64,000 nt of DNA from Scenedesmus sp. PABB004 (GCA_014905635.1 JABVCE010000031.1:1-64000), one strand, 5' to 3'. Positions 5,838 to 14,374 are shown, counted from the stretch's first letter. Made by a program: numbers and translations. Notes: generated from the letters alone by a model not told the origin.

Positions 5838-8153
5838 ATGGCGGCGGAGGCAGCGGGCGGCGGCGACGCGTTCGAGCCCCGGCCTTTCACCATCGCCGTT
5901 CCCGATGAGGAGCTCTTATTCCTGGTGCGCGCGAGCGGCAGGAGCGGCGGGAGCAGCGCCAGGAGCAGCGGCGAGCGGGGGTGCTGCTTGACAGCAGCTG
6001 CTGCTGTCGCTCCGCAGGCTTCGCGGCTGGAGAGCGCGCGCTTCCCGGACCAGCTCGAGGGGATCGCACCATGGGAGGACGGCACGGACCTGCACTATTT
6101 CAAGGTCCGGCGAGCACGGGGGGCTGCGGCGACCGGCGCGGCGCGGCTGCGCGCGGCAGCGCGCCGGGAGCGGCGGCGACTACCGCGCCGGCGCCGCTGC
6201 GCGCCGCGCCGCGCGCAGGGTTTCGTGGAGCACTGGCGCACGCGCTACGACTGGCGCGCGTGGGAGGCGAGGCTCAACGCGCTGCCGCAGTTCACCGCGG
6301 CCGTGCGCGGCGTCGACCTCCACTTTGTGCACCAGCGCAGCCCCCGGCCCGACGCGACGCCGCTGCTGCTGCTCCACGGCTGGCCGGGCAGCTACTTCGA
6401 GTGCGCGCAGCTGGCTGGCCGCCGCACGGCGCGGCCGCCGCACGGCGTGGCCGCCGCACGGCGTGGCGCGTCGCCGCGCGCGCTGGGCCCTGTGCGGGGC
6501 GCGTGATGAGCCCTGCGATGTGCCGCCGCCGCCGGCCCGCAGGTTCATAAAGCTCATCCCGCTGCTGGGTGACGCCTTCCACATCGTCGCGCCCTCGCTG
6601 CCGGGTGGGTCGCGGTCGCGTCCGCGGCGCGGCTGCGGCTGCGGCGCGGCGCGGTCGCAACGGCAGCGCCGACGCAGCCCCGCCCCGCGCGCGGCTGAGC
6701 CGTCGCGGCGCCGGCGCGCAGGCTACGGCTGGTCCTCGGCCCCCAAGCAGCGCGGCTTCGGCTCGACCGCCATCGCGGCGACGGTGGACAGGCGCGGCGG
6801 CGCGCGTGCGCGCGCGCGCGCGCCGCCGGGCCCCTGTTGTCACTTGCCGGCCGCGCCCGGCGCCGGCGGGGCCGCCGCGCCGCGCCCGGCTCGCCCAGCC
6901 GGCCCGTCGCTCGCTCGCGCCCGCGCGCCGCGCCGTGCGCAGCCTGATGGCGCGCCTGGGCTACGCCCGCTACATCGCCCAGGGCGGCGACTGGGGCGCG
7001 ATCATCTGCCGCGCGCTCGCCAAGTGCGCGCGCTCGCGCGCGCCCCCGCCGCGGGCCAGCGCGCCGCCGGCCCGGCGCCGCGCCGGCGCCGGCCTGCACG
7101 TGCGTGCGCGCGCAGACCGCCCGCCCCCGGCCCGCCCCGCGCCCCCTCGCGCGCCAGGTACCACCAGACCTCCTGCGCCGCGGTGCACCTAAACATGGTC
7201 GTGGCGAGCCCGCGGCTCACCAGCCCGCGCCACCTCCTGCAGCTCGCCAACGTCGCGGTCGCGCCGGGGCTGCCCATCTTCCTCTCCGCGGGCGAGCTCG
7301 CCGGCCTCAAGGTGCCGGCGGGGCGCGCCGCCACACGGCGGCAGCGCGCGAGGCAGCGCGACGGGCGGCGCCGCGGGGCGTGCGCGCCGGCGCGTGGGGC
7401 GCGGCGCCCAACCCCCCACCGCGCCGCGGCGCCGCGCAGGAGCTGGGCCACTTCCGGGAGGCTGAGTCCGGTGCGACTCGCGCGCGCGCGCGCGCGTGCG
7501 GTCGGGGCGCGGAGCGCGGCCACTCTCACGCCGCGGCCGCCCGCCGCCGCCGCGTGCTGCCGAATTCATGAATTCGATCAGCCTACCAGAAGATCCAGGG
7601 CACCAAGCCGCAGACGCTCGCATACGCGCTGCAGGCGCGGCCGCGCGCGCCGGCGCCTCCCGGCAGCGCCTGAGCCGGCGGCCCGCACTGCCGCCCGCGC
7701 GAGCGCCGCGCGGCGCGGCGCGGCAGCGACGCCCGCCCGCCGCCGCGCGCAGGACAGCCCCGTGGGCCTCGCCGCCTGGATCCTGGAGAAGTTCCGCACC
7801 TGGAGCGACTGGTGCGCCCGCCATCGGCCGCGCACGGGGCCCCTCGGCGGACGCCCCCTCGGTGCCCGCCGCGCCGCGCCGCGCGCGTCCGCGCCGCGCC
7901 GCACGGCCGCGCCGCGCCGCACGACTGCGCGACCGCGCGCCCGCCACCGCGCGCCCGCGCGCTCATCGCCGCGCGCAGCGGCGGCGACCCCGACGCCGCG
8001 CTGAGCAAGGACGAGATGCTGACCAACATCTGCATCTACTGGTTTGGCGGCCGCATCGCGTCCAGCATGCGGCTGTACAAGGAAACACTCTCCAACAAGT
8101 GAGGCCTGCCTCCCCGCCTCCGCGCAGACAGGGGCCCGCGCAGACACGCGGCC

Positions 8154-8203
<50 letters not shown>

Positions 8204-8647
8204 CGCGGCGGCGGCGGCGGCCCAGACCTGCCTCGCCGCGCCGCGCAGGGCGGAGCTGGGCGCGCTGTTTGGGGGCTACACCCCCACGCCCACCGGCGCC
8301 GCGATCTTCCCTCGTGCGCAGCGCCGCGCGCGGCGCGCGCGCCACGGCCGCCGCGCCCCGACGCGCGCCCGGCGCCTTGACGCGCGCCCGGCGCCCCGAC
8401 GCGCGCCCGCCGCGCGCCCTAGCCCGCCCGGCGCCCCGACGCGCGCCCTGCGCCCCCCGCCGCGCGTCCGCGCCGCGCAGGCGAGCTGGTCAAGCCGCCG
8501 CGCAGCTGGGCGCAGGCGGCTTACAACATCCAGGCGTGGACGGAGATGCCGCGCGGCGGGCACTTTGCCGCCCTGGAGCAGCCGGAGCTGCTGGCGCGCG
8601 AGGTGCTGGCGTTTGGCCAGCTCGCGGCGAGCAAGGGCTGGCTGTGA
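5838..8647 (+). CDS. Microsomal/juvenile-hormone-type epoxide hydrolase (EHN + alpha/beta hydrolase), many exons
   Basis: PFTIAVPDEEL, WRTRYDWRAWEARLN, LLLHGWPGSYFEF, APSLPGYGWS, QGGDWG (nucleophile Asp), [44 protein letters not shown]. Confidence 0.95.
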
Positions 8648-9311
8648 GGGGAGCGGCGGGCCTGGCGCTGACGCCCGCCCCTGCGCGCGGCGGTCGAGGC
8701 GGCGTGGCGCGGGAGCTGGCGCGGGCTGCGAGGCAGCGGGGCGCGGCCGCGGCTGTTGTTGTTGTTGATGTTGTTGATGTTGCCAAGGGTGGTGGTGGTG
8801 GCGGGGCGTGCGATTGAGCGTGTGAGAGGGAGAGAGAGACGGCGGGCAGGCCGCCGGAGCCTGCCACAGAAACTAAAACGGTCATACGAGCTCCCCTTCC
8901 CCCACGCTGAACTCCCTCCGACGACGCGCCTTCCCGCCTTGCCGCCGACAGCCTCCGGAGGTCGCAGTCGCAGCGCTGGCGCCGTCAACGTGCGTGCAGC
9001 GCTAGCGCGTGGCACGGGCGGGCGGCGGGCGGCGGGGGCGGGCGGCGCGCGTCGCGAGGGACGCGGGCGGGGAGGGCCGCCCGGCCGCGGTGCCGCCGCG
9101 CGGGGCGGCCTGTGCTGGCGCGGTCAAGGCGGCGCCGCCGCGCCGCCGACCCCACGCCGCCGCGCCGCCGCCGGCCCCGGGCGAGCCGCTCCCGCGCGCC
9201 CGTGCCGCACCTGCACCGGGCCAGGAGCGGCGCCTTGCGCCTCAGCGTGCCGTAGGGGCGGCCATCCATGCTGCCCACGCAGGGGAGGGCGCCGCCGCGT
9301 GTTGCGGCGCC

Positions 9312-10622
9312 TCAGGCCGCGCGGCCCCGCCGCCTCGGTCCGCTCCCCGCGCCGCCGTCGCCGCCGCGGGCGTCGCTTGCGCTCGTGGCGTCCGCCGCCG
9401 CTGCACGCGCCGCGGCCTCGAGCTCGTCCGCCTCCCTGTCCAGCCGGGACAGGTCGGCGGCCGTGTTGCGCACGCTGCGCTGCGAGTCGGAGGGCGTGCA
9501 CGAGAGCATCATCGTCTGCACCACGCCGCTCAGCGGGAGCGTGCGGCGCAGCTTGAAGTGCGTCCCCCCGCCGCCGTCGCCTGCGTCGCGCGGCAGCGGG
9601 GCGGCGGGCGCTCGCTGCCGCGTGCGCCGCCCGCCGAGCTCCGCCGCCAGCGCGCTGCTGCACACCTTTGCCGACCGGGTGCCAGCCGTGCGCCTGCGCC
9701 GAGGCAAAGAGCCCGCGCCATGAGTAGCCGACGCGCGCCTTGGCGCCGACGCCGGCGGGGCCGAGGCCGGCGGGCTCGCCGTCCTGCGCCGCGCCGTCGG
9801 GCGCGCCGCCGCCGCCGCCGCCGTCCAGCATGCGGCGCACGGCGTCCTGGGTCGGGGCTGCGCCGCCGGCGCGGTTGCCGCCGCCGCCGCCGACCCCTGC
9901 CAGCGACGCCTCGACCGCGGCCTGCTGCGCCAGCAGCTCGCGCGTCGCGGCCGCCGCGTGCTGGTCAGCCAGCAGCGTGCCGCCGCCCAGCGGCCCGCCG
10001 CCGCGCGGAGAGGCCTGCTCCACCCAGAGCACCTCGTCCTGCTTCAGCACCAGCCCATCCAGCGCCAGGTCCGCGGCCAGGTCGAGCCCGCTGGGCCGCA
10101 CCACCGCCGCGCCGCCGCCGCCGCCGCGCGCGGCGCTGCTGATGAGCTTGACGCCGCCGCGCGCCTGCCGCCCCGGCCTGGCTGCGCGGCCGCCCTTCCA
10201 GCCGCGGGGCACCGCGTGGGGCGAGGGCCTGACCTGCTGCCAGCCGTCGCCGCCGTCTGGCGCCGCAAGCGGCGGGAAGGCATCGTCCGCGCCGCAGGGC
10301 GGCGGCGGCGCCGCTGCGCCGCGCACGCCGGCCCCCGCCTGCCATGCCGCAGCGGTGGCGGCGGCAAAGCTCGGCGGCGGCGAGCTCCCGCGCTGCTGCG
10401 CGGCCAGCTCCTGCAGCAACGCCGCCTGCCGCGCCGCCAGCAGCTCCTCCACGCCCAGCCCAGCCGCTGCTGCCGCGGCCGCCACGTCGGGCTGCACCAG
10501 CGCGCCCAGCGCGCCAAACGCGGCGGCGTCGGCGGCCGCATCGGCGTCGCCCGCCGCGCGCGCCTCCTCCGCGAACGCCTCGGCGAATGTGGCCCAGTCT
10601 ATGGACGACGCGGGGCTGTCCG

Positions 10623-10654
<32 letters not shown>

Positions 10655-10666
10655 TGCTGTGCCTGC

Positions 10667-10702
<36 letters not shown>

Positions 10703-11155
10703 GCCTGCTGCTGCTGCCGCTGCTGCTGCTGCCGGGCCGGCGAGGCCAGGTGCTGGGCCGGGGGGAATACGCAGTCGGCGGGCGGGCAGGCCGGCCGGTT
10801 GCTGCCGATGCTGCCGCCGCTGTCGCTGCCGCGCGCCAGGCGCTCCGCGGCCTCTGCTGCCTGGATGGCTGCCAGCGCTGACGCCAGGCCGGGGCTACCT
10901 GGGGGCTCGCCATCGCTCCCCGGGCCGCCATCCTGCTGCTGCTGCTGCTGCCGCCGGTGCTGCTGGCGCGCCTGCGCCGGCGAGGCCAGGTGCTGGACCG
11001 GGGGAAAGATCCAGTCTGCTGGCGGGCTGGCAGGCCGGTTGCTGTCGCCACAGCCGCGCGCGAGGCGCTCCGCCGCCTCTGCCGCCTGGATGGCTGCCAG
11101 CGCTGACGCCAGGCCGGGGCTGCCGGGGGGTTCGTCATCGCTGGCCTGGCCACCA

Positions 11156-11209
<54 letters not shown>

Positions 11210-11423
11210 TGCTGCCATCGTGGGAGGGCCGCGCCGCCGGCTCTGGGGGTGGCAGCGGCGAGTCGGCAAGCGTTTGTTCGCGAGCAGCAGCGACGCGACG
11301 CAGCACAAGCAAACTCTGCGCCGCGGCCTCGCGCCCGTCCGCTCACCGGTTGTTCTTCCTGGCGGCCAGCTGCCGGGGGTTGCTGCTGTCGCTGTCGGCG
11401 AGCGCAGCAAACGGGTTGGACAT
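9312..11423 (-). CDS. Q-rich low-complexity protein with C-terminal HicA-like (dsRBD-fold) domain; 3 exons
   Basis: Exons 11423-11347, 11242-9666 and 9580-9312 join in frame over GT-AG introns. Spliced C-terminus: YSWRGLFASAQAHGWHPVGKGDGGGGTHFKLRRTLPLSGVVQTMMLSCTPSDSQRSVRNTAADLSRLDRE. Domain call is by pattern only. Confidence 0.65.
10620..11215 (-). repeat. Internal duplication (2 copies, ~225-240 bp) separated by CAG/polyQ tracts within the coding exon
   Basis: DGG..SD.EPPGSPGLASALAAIQAAEAAERLARG..SNRPA.PPAD..FPP.QHLASPA occurs twice; (CTG)n runs on the + strand at about 10625-10730, 10935-10950 and 11158-11206. Confidence 0.9.
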
Positions 11424-11709
11424 CGCGAGCAGCAGCAGCAGCGCGAGCAGCCGCCGCCGCCGGCCCGCCGGGCTTTTCTTCACGCCGGCCCCGCCCGACA
11501 GACGACGTGCGCGTGGCGCAGCTGTCACCGCAGGCGGAGCGTGCGGCGGCTTCGGTGCGGCGCGCCGGCGGCGGTTGCGCCCGCGGCCGCTGCCGGGCTG
11601 CTGCTGGCGCTGGGGGAACACGAAAACGGCAAGCTGGGAGCGGGCTATCAGCTGAATCGGCGGATGGCGGGGCAGCGAGAGCGCAGCAGCCTGCGAGGGT
11701 TCACCGCGC

Positions 11710-13296
11710 TCAGCCGCCGACGAGGCGCTCGAGCGTGCCCGCGAACGCCGCGGCCGCGGCGCGTCGCCGCAGCTTGCCCGTGGGCGTGAGCAGGTCGCCG
11801 CCAAACGGCTCGGCGACGAGCGCGACCGCGGCGGGCAGCTCGTAGCCCGCCAGCCCGGCGGCGCGGCCGACGGCCGCCATGCTGCAGCGCACGGCCTCGG
11901 CCGCGGCGGGGCAGGCGCACAGCGCGTCGTGCGCGCGCGGCAGCGGCGGCCGCTGCTCCGCGGCCCACGCGGCCAGCGCGGCGCGGTCGGGCGCGACGAC
12001 CGCGACCACCACGCCGCGCCGGGCGTCGGCGTGCACAAACACGCTGCCGCCCTCGCCGACGAGCGGGCTGCGGGCGAGCACGGCCTCCAGCCGCTCCGGC
12101 GCCACAAACTCGCCCTGCGGGAGCTTGACCGCGGACCCGAGCCGCCCCAGCAGCGCGAGGCGCCCGCCCGGGAGCCAGCACCCCGCGTCGCCGGTGTGCA
12201 GCCAGCCGTCGGCGTCGAGCGCCGCCGCCGTCGCGGCCGCGTCGCCGAGGTACCCCCGGAACACGCTCGGCCCGCGCACGCACACCTCGCCGCTGCGCGC
12301 GCGCCGGCGGCCGGGCGGGGCGCGGCGTGAGCGGTTGCGCGGGCGCGCGGTGCGTGAGCGGCGGCGTGCGCGCGGGCGGGCACCGTGTGCGCGGCGGCGG
12401 CGGCGGCGCGCGCTGCGTGCGCGGCGGCGCGCACCGCGGGTAGGGCGCGTCGTCGGGGGAGAGGCCGCGCTGCGGCGCTGGGACGAGCTTCACCTCGCAG
12501 CACGGCAGCGGCGCGCCGACGTGGCCCGCGCTCGCGTCGCCCGGGCGGCCGATGGTGATGCTGCACCCCGCCTCGGTCTGGCCGTATCCCTCCACCACGT
12601 CGGCGCCCAGCACGCAGCGCAGCAGCGTCAGCACCGCGGGACTGGCCGGCGCCGCGCCGCAGCTGAGGTAGCGCACGCGGCCGCCCAGCGCCTCGGCGGC
12701 GAGCGGCCGGAACATCGCGGCGTCCGCGAGCGGCACGAGCCAGCCGCTGCTGGCGGCGGGCGGGCCTGCACGGGCGCGGCGCGGCGGCGCGGCGGCGCGT
12801 GAGCAGCAGCGCACAAACGCCGCGCCTGCGCCCGCGCCGCGCCTGCACCGCGCGTGCGCCCGCATACCTGCGCCGAGCGCGGCCGCCTTGGCCGCCAGCG
12901 CCGCCTCCCACAGCGCCGCGCCCCAGCGCCGCCGGCCCTCGCTGTCGAGCGCCCCGGCCACGCGCGCGGCAAGGCGCGGCACCGCCATGAACAGCGCGGG
13001 GCGCAGCTCCGCCGCGTCGGCGAGCGCGGCGTCCGCGCCCGCGCCGCTGGCGACCCCGATGCTCAGCCCCAGGTGCACCGCGAGCGTCACGTTGCGCCGC
13101 TCAAAGATGTGCGCCAGCGGCAGGTAGCACAGGTGCCGCTCGCCCGGCGCCCACGGCCGCGTGCCGCCGGCGCCGCCGCCGCCGCAGCTGCCGGTGAGCA
13201 GCGCCGCGCTGCCGGCGGCATTGGCGATGATGTTGGCGTGGCTCAGCACCACGCCTGCGCGCAGCGGCGCCGGGGCGGCGGCCGCCGCGTCGGGAG

Positions 13297-13329
<33 letters not shown>

Positions 13330-14374
13330 TGCGCGACCGCGGCGCGGCGCGCACCCTTGGGGAGCGGGCCGGACGTGCCGCTGGTGAAGTAAATCGTCGC
13401 AACGTCGCCCGGCCGCGGCGGCACGTGCGGGCGCGGCGCGGCGCGGCCGAGCGCCTCCAGCTGCTCAAACGTCACAACGCGCGCGCCGCACCCCGGCGGC
13501 GGCTGCGGCAGGCCCGCCGCCGACGCGCCGGCGCCCCAGACCACCAGCAGCCGCACGGCGGGGCAGCGCGGCAGCACGGCGAGCAGGCGCGGCAGCGCGC
13601 ACGCCGACACGCCGACCGCCGCGAGCTGCGCGTGCCGCGCCGCGTGCTCCAGGCCGTCGGGCCGCAGCGCCGCGAACAGCGGCACGGTGGCCATGCTCAC
13701 GGCGTGCGCCGCCGCGTCGAGCAGGAGCCACGCCGCCGCGTTGGGGCCAAACAGCCCCACGTGCGCGCCCGGCGCCAGGCCGAGCTGCAGCAGCCCCGAC
13801 GCGAGCGCGTCGCGCGCCTCGGCAACCTGCGGAGCGGCGCGGCGCGGCGCGTCGCGCGTTGGGAGCGGCCGCCGCGCTGCTTTAACCGCCGCCGCCGCGC
13901 CGCCGCCGCCGCCCGCACCTCTGCGTAGGTCATCCACTCGTACGGCCCGAGCCGCCCCGCCGCGTCGCGGCGGCGCCAGCCGAGCGCGGGCACGGCCGGC
14001 CAGCGGGCGGCCGCCTCCTGCCAGTTGTCGTGGAGCGTCGCGACGTGGCTGGCCGGCGGGGGGAAGTGGGACAAGAGCGCCGCGGGGCACTCGGCGGCGC
14101 GGTGCACGCGCCACGCCGCGGCGGCGTCCCGCTGCTGCCAGTCGAGGCGCTCGGGCAGCACGACCGACAGCCGCGCGCGCCGCGCGCCCGGCTGCCAGGC
14201 CGCCGCGGGGTCGGCGCCGGCGTCGGGCTGCGCGGGCGCGGGCGGCGCCGCGCGGCGCAGCAGCTGCCCCGCCAGCACCGCGAGCCGGCCGGCCGCCGCC
14301 TCGCCGGCCGGGGTGGTGGTGGGCGCCCCGCCGCCGCCCGAGTCGCCCGGCGGCGGCGCGGCGGGCTCGTCCAT
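11710..14374 (-). CDS. Long-chain acyl-CoA synthetase, peroxisomal LACS6/7-like, with PTS2
   Basis: YEWMTYAE, IYFTSGTSGPLPKG, CYLPLAHIFER, EGYGQTEAG, GHVGAPLPCCEVKL, GWLHTGDAG, KLPQGEFVAPERLE, LLTPTGKLRR; N-terminal RLAVLAGQL. Confidence 0.93.

Follow-up and report, generated by a model that had tools for sequence, protein, structure and literature searches.

A predicted three-exon gene of Scenedesmus sp. PABB004 that ends in a probable HicA-superfamily domain split by an intron

We analyzed a 64,000-nucleotide (nt) stretch of DNA from Scenedesmus sp. PABB004 (GCA_014905635.1 JABVCE010000031.1:1-64000, hereafter the window), which carries on its minus strand a predicted three-exon gene (11423..9312) whose product would end in a domain of ∼80 amino acids (aa) resembling the HicA toxins of prokaryotes. 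Exon 1 (11347..11423, 77 nt) opens with an ATG at 11423-11421 and ends at a GTGAGC donor; it is predicted from its open frame and from the periodicity of G+C content at third codon positions (GC3), and intron 1 (11243..11346, 104 nt, GTGAGC...CCCCAG) from the in-frame joining of exon 1 to the long open frame that follows. This frame, exon 2 (9666..11242, 1577 nt), has no Met of its own, the start being supplied by the ATG at 11423, and is supported by frame, periodicity, collinear tblastn matches, and conserved blocks. Intron 2 (9581..9665, 85 nt, GTGTGC...GCAG, phase 1) is placed by GC3 periodicity, by the alignment of homologues, and by a comparison of GT-AG pairs, and exon 3 (9312..9580, 269 nt including the stop codon at 9314-9312) by its open frame, its homologues, and a match to the protein family phrog_2089. 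Joined together, the exons, all on the minus strand, give 1923 nt, or 640 codons and a stop, with no internal stop codon. Exon 1 and intron 1 are predicted parts of this model, and there is very probably a real spliced gene at this locus.

The HicA-like domain (9411..9744, minus strand) corresponds to residues 526–608 of the 640-aa model and contains intron 2; it was delimited with a hidden Markov model (HMM) of the family (122 bits) and with the profile-profile program hhalign. The last 79 nt of exon 2 (9744-9666) encode helix 1 and strand 1, and exon 3 encodes a Gly-rich loop, a conserved His (residue 559, codon 9560-9558), strands 2 and 3, a turn with the residues TPSD, helix 2, and an Ala-rich basic tail. 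Intron 2 therefore separates strand 1 from the His-bearing Gly-rich loop.

G+C content is 72–83% throughout the window, which is extreme for a eukaryotic nuclear genome, and third codon positions in the window's exons reach up to 100% G+C. Because open frames in all six frames are the rule in such DNA, they carry no weight alone, and the support for the second splice junction was therefore taken from codon periodicity and homology. Over positions 9720-10250, G+C is highest where the coordinate modulo 3 is 1 and lowest where it is 2, and over 9420-9569 the positions with modulo 0 are 100% G+C (GC3 = 1.00), with 53–63% at the other two. The coding frame thus shifts by one between ∼9660 and 9580, as expected from an intron whose length of 85 nt is 1 modulo 3; the upstream exon ends in AAG at 9666 and the next begins at 9580. 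The spliced peptide aligns without gaps over the junction with 19 homologous proteins. In tblastn comparisons, residues 305–331 of the homologue P0007 fall on 9747-9667 and residues 333–379 on 9578-9438, with the one residue between them corresponding to the split codon, and two further homologues run collinearly along exon 2 (P0009, residues 135–316 on 10284-9673; P0008, residues 222–329 on 9969-9667). When all 21 GT-AG pairs in the region that yield an open frame were scored against the family HMM, the pair 9665/9581 ranked at the top with 127.0 bits, compared to 115.9 bits for the runner-up and 98.0 bits for the unspliced frame. From the DNA and from homology we infer that intron 2 is spliced at 9665/9581. 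The original prediction, made from the DNA alone, had proposed this 85-nt GT-AG intron at 9581-9665 and a domain divided by it over two reading frames, and both proposals agree with our results; its domain limits of 9432..9730 gave the right location and proved slightly narrow, the family profile covering 9744-9666 plus 9580-9411.

To identify homologues, we compared the 53 residues of exon 3 (9578-9420) with 1.84 billion representative proteins using phmmer and obtained 21 matches at E≤1e-3, eight of which were at or below 1e-10. Two of these (P0018 and P0022) are repeat proteins that match via several short stretches and were excluded from the family; the remaining 19 hold the domain in one piece. 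Across the 53 aa of exon 3, the Chlamydomonas protein is 57% identical to the window and the Volvox protein 50%. The named members, from Tetradesmus obliquus, Chlamydomonas reinhardtii, Volvox africanus, V. reticuliferus, Edaphochlamys debaryana, and Gonium pectorale, are all Chlorophyceae, and they are annotated as hypothetical or uncharacterised proteins with no Pfam domain on record. Complete homologues measure ∼400–930 aa. The Chlamydomonas member is CHLRE_09g395473v5 (XP_042921254.1, 585 aa), a gene name that we found nowhere in the literature searched. The His that aligns with the catalytic His of HicA is present in the window and invariant in two alignments (19/19 and 18/18 homologues); it is the residue that the original prediction had picked out. 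Five further residues are likewise invariant: Lys and Arg of strand 2, Gln of strand 3, and Asp of the TPSD turn with the Arg after it. Six short gene calls (P0011, P0012, P0016, P0026, P0028, and P0029) start inside the domain, one of them near the position of the window's intron, a possible sign that other algae have introns at this position or close to it.

The proteins of Chlamydomonas, Volvox, Gonium, Edaphochlamys, and Tetradesmus share the architecture of the window's protein, namely a short motif at the N terminus, low-complexity sequence in the middle, conserved blocks, and, at the C terminus, the domain with all its invariant residues. By alignment, the short N-terminal motif in exon 1 is similar to the beginnings of the homologues from Chlamydomonas, Volvox, Edaphochlamys, and Gonium. 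A suspected resemblance of this motif to ribosome-binding proteins of the Stm1/SERBP1 type was dropped as unsupported, with no Pfam match for the 26-aa exon or for the Chlamydomonas and Volvox proteins. Exon 2 is mostly low-complexity (poly-Gln, Ala-rich, and Gly-rich) with short conserved blocks. Three such blocks lie upstream of the domain on the minus strand (10051-10098, 9922-9948, and 9820-9846, in the region 9820..10098) and are common to all long homologues; they include an M-M-x-x-A motif that is invariant in 18 of 18 homologues, and the window's copy is partly divergent there. Pfam returned no family for the conserved blocks, for exon 1 (26 aa), or for any full-length homologue, and when the final 209 residues of exon 2 were used in a word-based protein search, none of 8000 scored candidates reached E≤0.01. 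Exon 2 also contains two direct-repeat copies of ∼225–240 nt (10693-11200, 78–88% identical) that encode a repeated Ala-rich segment, and long CAG/GCT runs at 10623-10732 and 11158-11215 that encode poly-Gln.

To place the domain among known families, we compared a profile of the algal sequences with two sets of HicA-like proteins using hhalign. The actinophage set consists of nine relatives of Arthrobacter phage Ottawa gp35 (WIC89267.1), a protein that matches Pfam HicA_toxin (PF07927) with 32.7 bits against a cut-off of 27 bits and phrog_2089 at 2e-12; five of the nine match PF07927 at E≤0.01. The canonical set consists of 30 HicAs, of which 28 pass the PF07927 cut-off and come from 81 actinobacterial genomes, together with E. 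coli HicA and the HicA of Natrinema virus SNJ2 (one unpublished genome, G004, was counted in the PF07927 tally, and its locus was left out of this set). The algal profile matched the actinophage set with a probability of 96.1% (pairwise P = 3.1e-9, 62 columns), with His aligned on His and TPSD on TPSD, and the canonical set with a probability of 93.9% (P = 1.6e-7, 49 columns). In the controls, the reversed HicA template gave P = 0.25, the reversed actinophage template P = 0.039, and the best of 20 column shuffles of the HicA template P = 0.0086. The window's spliced domain alone reached P = 3.2e-4 against the actinophage set and 2.7e-4 against canonical HicA. Since the actinophage family itself scores about equally against the 30 canonical HicAs (probability 93.3%, P = 2.8e-7, 56 columns), the algal domain is as HicA-like as the proteins that are so annotated.

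The PHROG family phrog_2089 supplied the link between the algal and HicA proteins, and searches of Streptomyces genomes served as an independent check. In one scan, 15 of the 18 domain sequences matched phrog_2089, the best at E = 1.4e-7; a second scan brought matches from 10 of 14 proteins, among them the window's exon 3 by itself (8.6e-5). The family carries no function label although members of it pass Pfam HicA_toxin. Relatives of Ottawa gp35 were found in 45 actinophage records and three Streptomyces genomes, and a single-protein scan with gp35 found two viral contigs and three Streptomyces loci. One Streptomyces copy lies just below the HicA_toxin cut-off (25.4 vs 27 bits). When whole Streptomyces genomes were searched in six frames with the algal profile, the HicA-like gene was the top match in 3/3 (E∼2e-3 per genome), the matches covering positions 7–74 of the profile's 84. 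A tblastn search of phages with P0023 gave weak matches in eight records, four of the matches lying on genes annotated as HicA toxins, Ottawa gp35 among them; a single-protein scan with P0023 found no viral relatives, and tblastn against phages gave no match for P0011 and none at E≤10 for the 53 aa of exon 3. A profile search among short proteins recovered algal sequences only and no bacterial HicA, an NCBIfam scan of the domain set gave scattered chance-level matches only, and the ESM Atlas returned a best score of 0.83 and no family. The nine actinophage relatives have in common with the algal domain the G-x-H turn, a T-P-S-D turn that follows strand 3, and an Arg as well as an Asn within the last helix. 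The original prediction had taken the spliced peptide for a HicA-like domain with a TPSD..R..N ending like that of phage and actinobacterial proteins; the profile comparison with its controls, phrog_2089, and the Streptomyces top matches bear out the assignment, and the ending is indeed a hallmark of the actinophage/Streptomyces HicA-like subfamily. We consider it highly likely that the algal domain belongs to the HicA superfamily by homology, and within the superfamily it is closest to this TPSD-type subfamily of actinobacteriophages and Streptomyces.

The available parts of two sources (PMC6159526, PMC11594946) describe HicA toxins as having one conserved His, located in the turn between strands 1 and 2 beside Gly and Ser and indispensable to the RNase activity or the toxicity (S. 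pneumoniae His36, B. pseudomallei His24, E. coli His23, and phage Adephagia gp91 His31), and describe their RNA cleavage as ribosome-independent. The algal His aligned on this residue in the comparisons with E. coli HicA, with the actinophage set, and with the canonical HicAs.

We predicted the structure of the algal domain with AlphaFold, using the whole of the 105-aa P0005 (19 sequences; predicted local distance difference test, pLDDT, of 79.0) and the 84-aa domain (18 sequences; pLDDT 81.2). Both models display a helix, a short strand, a Gly-rich loop, two long strands, and a long helix, which corresponds to the alpha-beta-beta-beta-alpha order. In Foldseek searches of the PDB, S. pneumoniae HicA headed the list for each model (E = 0.29 and 0.22, probability 0.51–0.54) and B. 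pseudomallei HicA came ninth and fifth, respectively, and a VIA-align search of 48,161 representative chains placed four HicA-family entries within the top 50. Among the predicted viral structures of BFVD, the top rows are small phage proteins (probability up to 0.99, E∼0.1, best 0.09), with the HicA-like protein of phage Mufasa8 at rank 9. Thus, of the structural match to HicA that had been proposed as a check, the fold order and the first rank were obtained, and statistical significance was not (E 0.22–0.29).

The gene is flanked by two genes of familiar type. Upstream on the same strand lies an AMP-binding gene of the long-chain acyl-CoA synthetase (LACS) type (11648..13471, minus strand; PF00501, E = 9.6e-28), and downstream, in convergent orientation, the last exon of an epoxide hydrolase gene (8468..8647, plus strand; best E = 6.4e-8 to epoxide hydrolase chains). 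The convergent neighbor appears to be a multi-exon epoxide hydrolase of the microsomal type (5992-8647, plus strand), an identity that one of its upstream exons also supports, and a short microsatellite-like stretch of TTG/GTT and GGT (8740-8830), presumably 3′ untranslated, lies between the convergent genes. These PF00501 and epoxide hydrolase matches confirm the flanks named in the original prediction, and, as it had stated, neither of the two adjoining genes is HicB-like.

A comparison with known systems shows what the algal domain shares with them and where it departs. The available parts of PMC11594946 and PMC10865869 describe canonical HicAs as mono-domain proteins of 50–100 aa encoded in hicAB operons of bacteria and archaea; examples are those of E. 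coli K-12 (NP_415954.2; 6HPB), S. pneumoniae (5YRZ), B. pseudomallei (6G26), and T. thermophilus (TTHA1913, 1WHZ). With these the algal domain shares remote homology detected by profile-profile comparison and the single conserved His in a Gly-x-His turn, and with phrog_2089 a profile match and the T-P-S-D/Arg/Asn motif after strand 3. The TPSD-type proteins (for instance Arthrobacter phage Ottawa gp35, Mufasa8 gp58, Microbacterium phage Brahms gp27, and Mycobacterium phage Prince gp84), whose "HicA-like toxin" labels are annotations by similarity, have the same domain length and order of elements as the algal domain. However, they are free-standing, intronless proteins of 63–92 aa, whereas the algal domain ends a protein of ∼400–930 aa; in it the Gly-rich loop preceding the His is longer, strands 2 and 3 are separated by an additional loop, and the C-terminal helix is long. 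A recognizable HicB neighbor is absent in both cases; around the TPSD-type genes of phages and Streptomyces, none of ten neighboring open reading frames (ORFs) matches a HicB family. Multidomain fusions are also known among prokaryotes: the SMC-HicA fusions ("Class 14") described in the available part of Gerdes 2024 (PMC10865869) resemble the algal protein in having a C-terminal HicA, being monocistronic, and lacking a separate HicB. Such fusions join recognizable domains (SMC, NERD), as far as that source goes, whereas the algal partner region is eukaryotic low-complexity sequence with no Pfam match. The accessible parts of three sources (PMC10865869, PMC11594946, PMC2701414) report HicA from bacteria, archaea, phages, and plasmids and describe multidomain fusions in prokaryotes as well.

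We built a quick maximum-likelihood tree from 60 rows and 80 columns, unrooted and with a canonical sample drawn almost wholly from one phylum. The tree separates the 29 canonical HicAs from the 19 algal and 12 TPSD-type sequences, with a value of 100 in the Shimodaira-Hasegawa-like approximate likelihood ratio test (SH-aLRT), and unites the algal sequences in one group (SH-aLRT 99). This grouping and the narrow algal distribution suggest one transfer from an actinobacterium-like or phage source, which would have been followed by intron gain and fusion.

Taken as a whole, the observations are best explained by a three-exon gene that ends in a domain of the HicA superfamily, most likely RNA-cleaving and probably captured from a bacterium or phage, a reading to which we assign a probability of about 0.7. 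Several results weigh against it. Pfam HicA_toxin matches only one of the 19 homologues, at 12.5 bits (E = 0.17), and none of three pieces of the window, and PDB sequences yielded no match to the full-length family profile and none at E≤10 to exon 3 as a single sequence. The hhalign figures are pairwise P-values on a shallow alignment (Neff, the effective number of sequences, is 2.6), and the comparison of the algal profile with E. coli HicA alone is not significant (P = 0.055). No Foldseek match reaches E = 0.001, the best being 0.2–0.3 in the PDB and 0.09 in BFVD. Unlike canonical HicA, the algal domain is fused, split by an intron, below the Pfam threshold, and without a partner gene nearby; it thus lacks a match to the curated Pfam model, the free-standing size of 50–100 aa, and the adjacent hicB operon. 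Its nearest prokaryotic relatives likewise have no recognizable HicB and may therefore not be classical toxins. The splice junction is predicted from DNA and homology; the proposed direction of transfer is drawn from the distribution and from a quick tree, unrooted and of 80 columns; and RNA binding and cleavage by the algal domain are predictions from sequence and model.

There are three other explanations. The most serious, though still rather unlikely in our judgment, is that the domain is a true HicA-superfamily homologue that is no longer a nuclease and serves as an RNA- or protein-binding module, similar to the dsRBD (double-stranded RNA-binding domain), at the end of a scaffold protein. 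HicA belongs to the same fold class as the dsRBD, according to the available parts of PMC10865869 and PMC2701414, and the weak Foldseek and VIA-align rows include the dsRBD proteins DCL4, MLE, RDE-4, and Dicer-2. The lack of an adjoining antitoxin gene, which is shared by the closest prokaryotic relatives, also speaks for loss of activity, because an unrestrained RNase would be costly. However, no significant match to a dsRBD family was obtained in Pfam, and a His of the catalytic type is invariant in all homologues examined together with five other polar residues, a set more in keeping with an active site than with a general surface for binding.

A convergent resemblance, in which an unrelated small alpha/beta domain (LptE-like or of a lineage-specific fold) happens to share the G-x-H turn, is very improbable: the hhalign P-values of 3.1e-9 and 1.6e-7 stand against 0.0086 or weaker in the 22 HicA controls, reversed or shuffled, and 0.039 for the reversed actinophage template, and phrog_2089, whose members pass Pfam HicA, is matched at E-values down to 1e-7. 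Moreover, the LptE matches cover only 61–81 of 129–172 residues and omit helix 1 of the model, whereas the HicA matches span whole chains. At 72–83% G+C all six frames are open, and the junction was placed from DNA and homology, so one might ask if the feature is real at all, or instead a chance GT-AG pair in GC-rich DNA, a pseudogene, or bacterial contamination. We find this scarcely credible, given that GC3 in exon 3 is 1.00, that the frame switches precisely at the intron, that exon 3 is 51–71% identical to the 19 homologues kept, and that homologue residues are contiguous across the junction. The flanking genes are intron-bearing eukaryotic genes, and a bacterial contaminant is excluded by the intron inside the domain itself.

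Returning to the HicA-derived RNA-cleaving domain, we propose the following course of events and mode of action. An ancestor of these algae probably acquired the domain by transfer from a bacterium or phage, and the domain would then have gained its intron and a eukaryotic N-terminal extension. Folded as a helix, three strands, and a helix, it would bind single-stranded RNA and cleave it without a metal ion; the invariant His, in the G-x-H turn that links strands 1 and 2, would play the part it has in bacterial HicA, with substrate binding aided by the equally invariant Lys, Arg, Gln, Asp, and Arg nearby. His-dependent RNA cleavage seems the most likely activity, with RNA binding without cleavage as its main rival, and the chances that the domain is an active nuclease are about even. 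With no separate HicB, targeting or restraint of the domain would fall to the long low-complexity N-terminal part and its short conserved blocks, the upstream blocks being candidates for the restraint of an RNase that has no antitoxin. A more elaborate scenario, which we offer as speculation and hold to be improbable as a whole, is that a phage or actinobacterial HicA-like RNase, once captured by chlorophycean algae, became an endoribonuclease that restrains itself without an antitoxin; the conserved helices immediately upstream would serve as its built-in inhibitor or sensor, and viral attack or stress would release the enzyme to cut RNA of the cell or of the virus. If true, such a self-restrained algal RNase would be a eukaryotic counterpart of abortive defence based on toxin-antitoxin systems.

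We found no report of a eukaryotic HicA-type domain in the literature searched, although InterPro and SUPERFAMILY may already flag the family. Standard domain databases miss the algal domain because the Pfam model fails and because the intron hides the domain from ORF-based scans. It is well supported that a HicA-superfamily domain, previously unannotated, occurs in a eukaryote and has an orthologue in a model organism. The scope is narrow: the family has so far been seen, judging by its named members, in Chlorophyceae, and its nuclease function is a prediction. Within that scope, it presents a clear case of a prokaryotic toxin domain with an acquired intron and a eukaryotic extension, and an unannotated family of green-algal proteins, including a Chlamydomonas gene, gains a testable prediction, namely His-dependent cleavage or binding of RNA.

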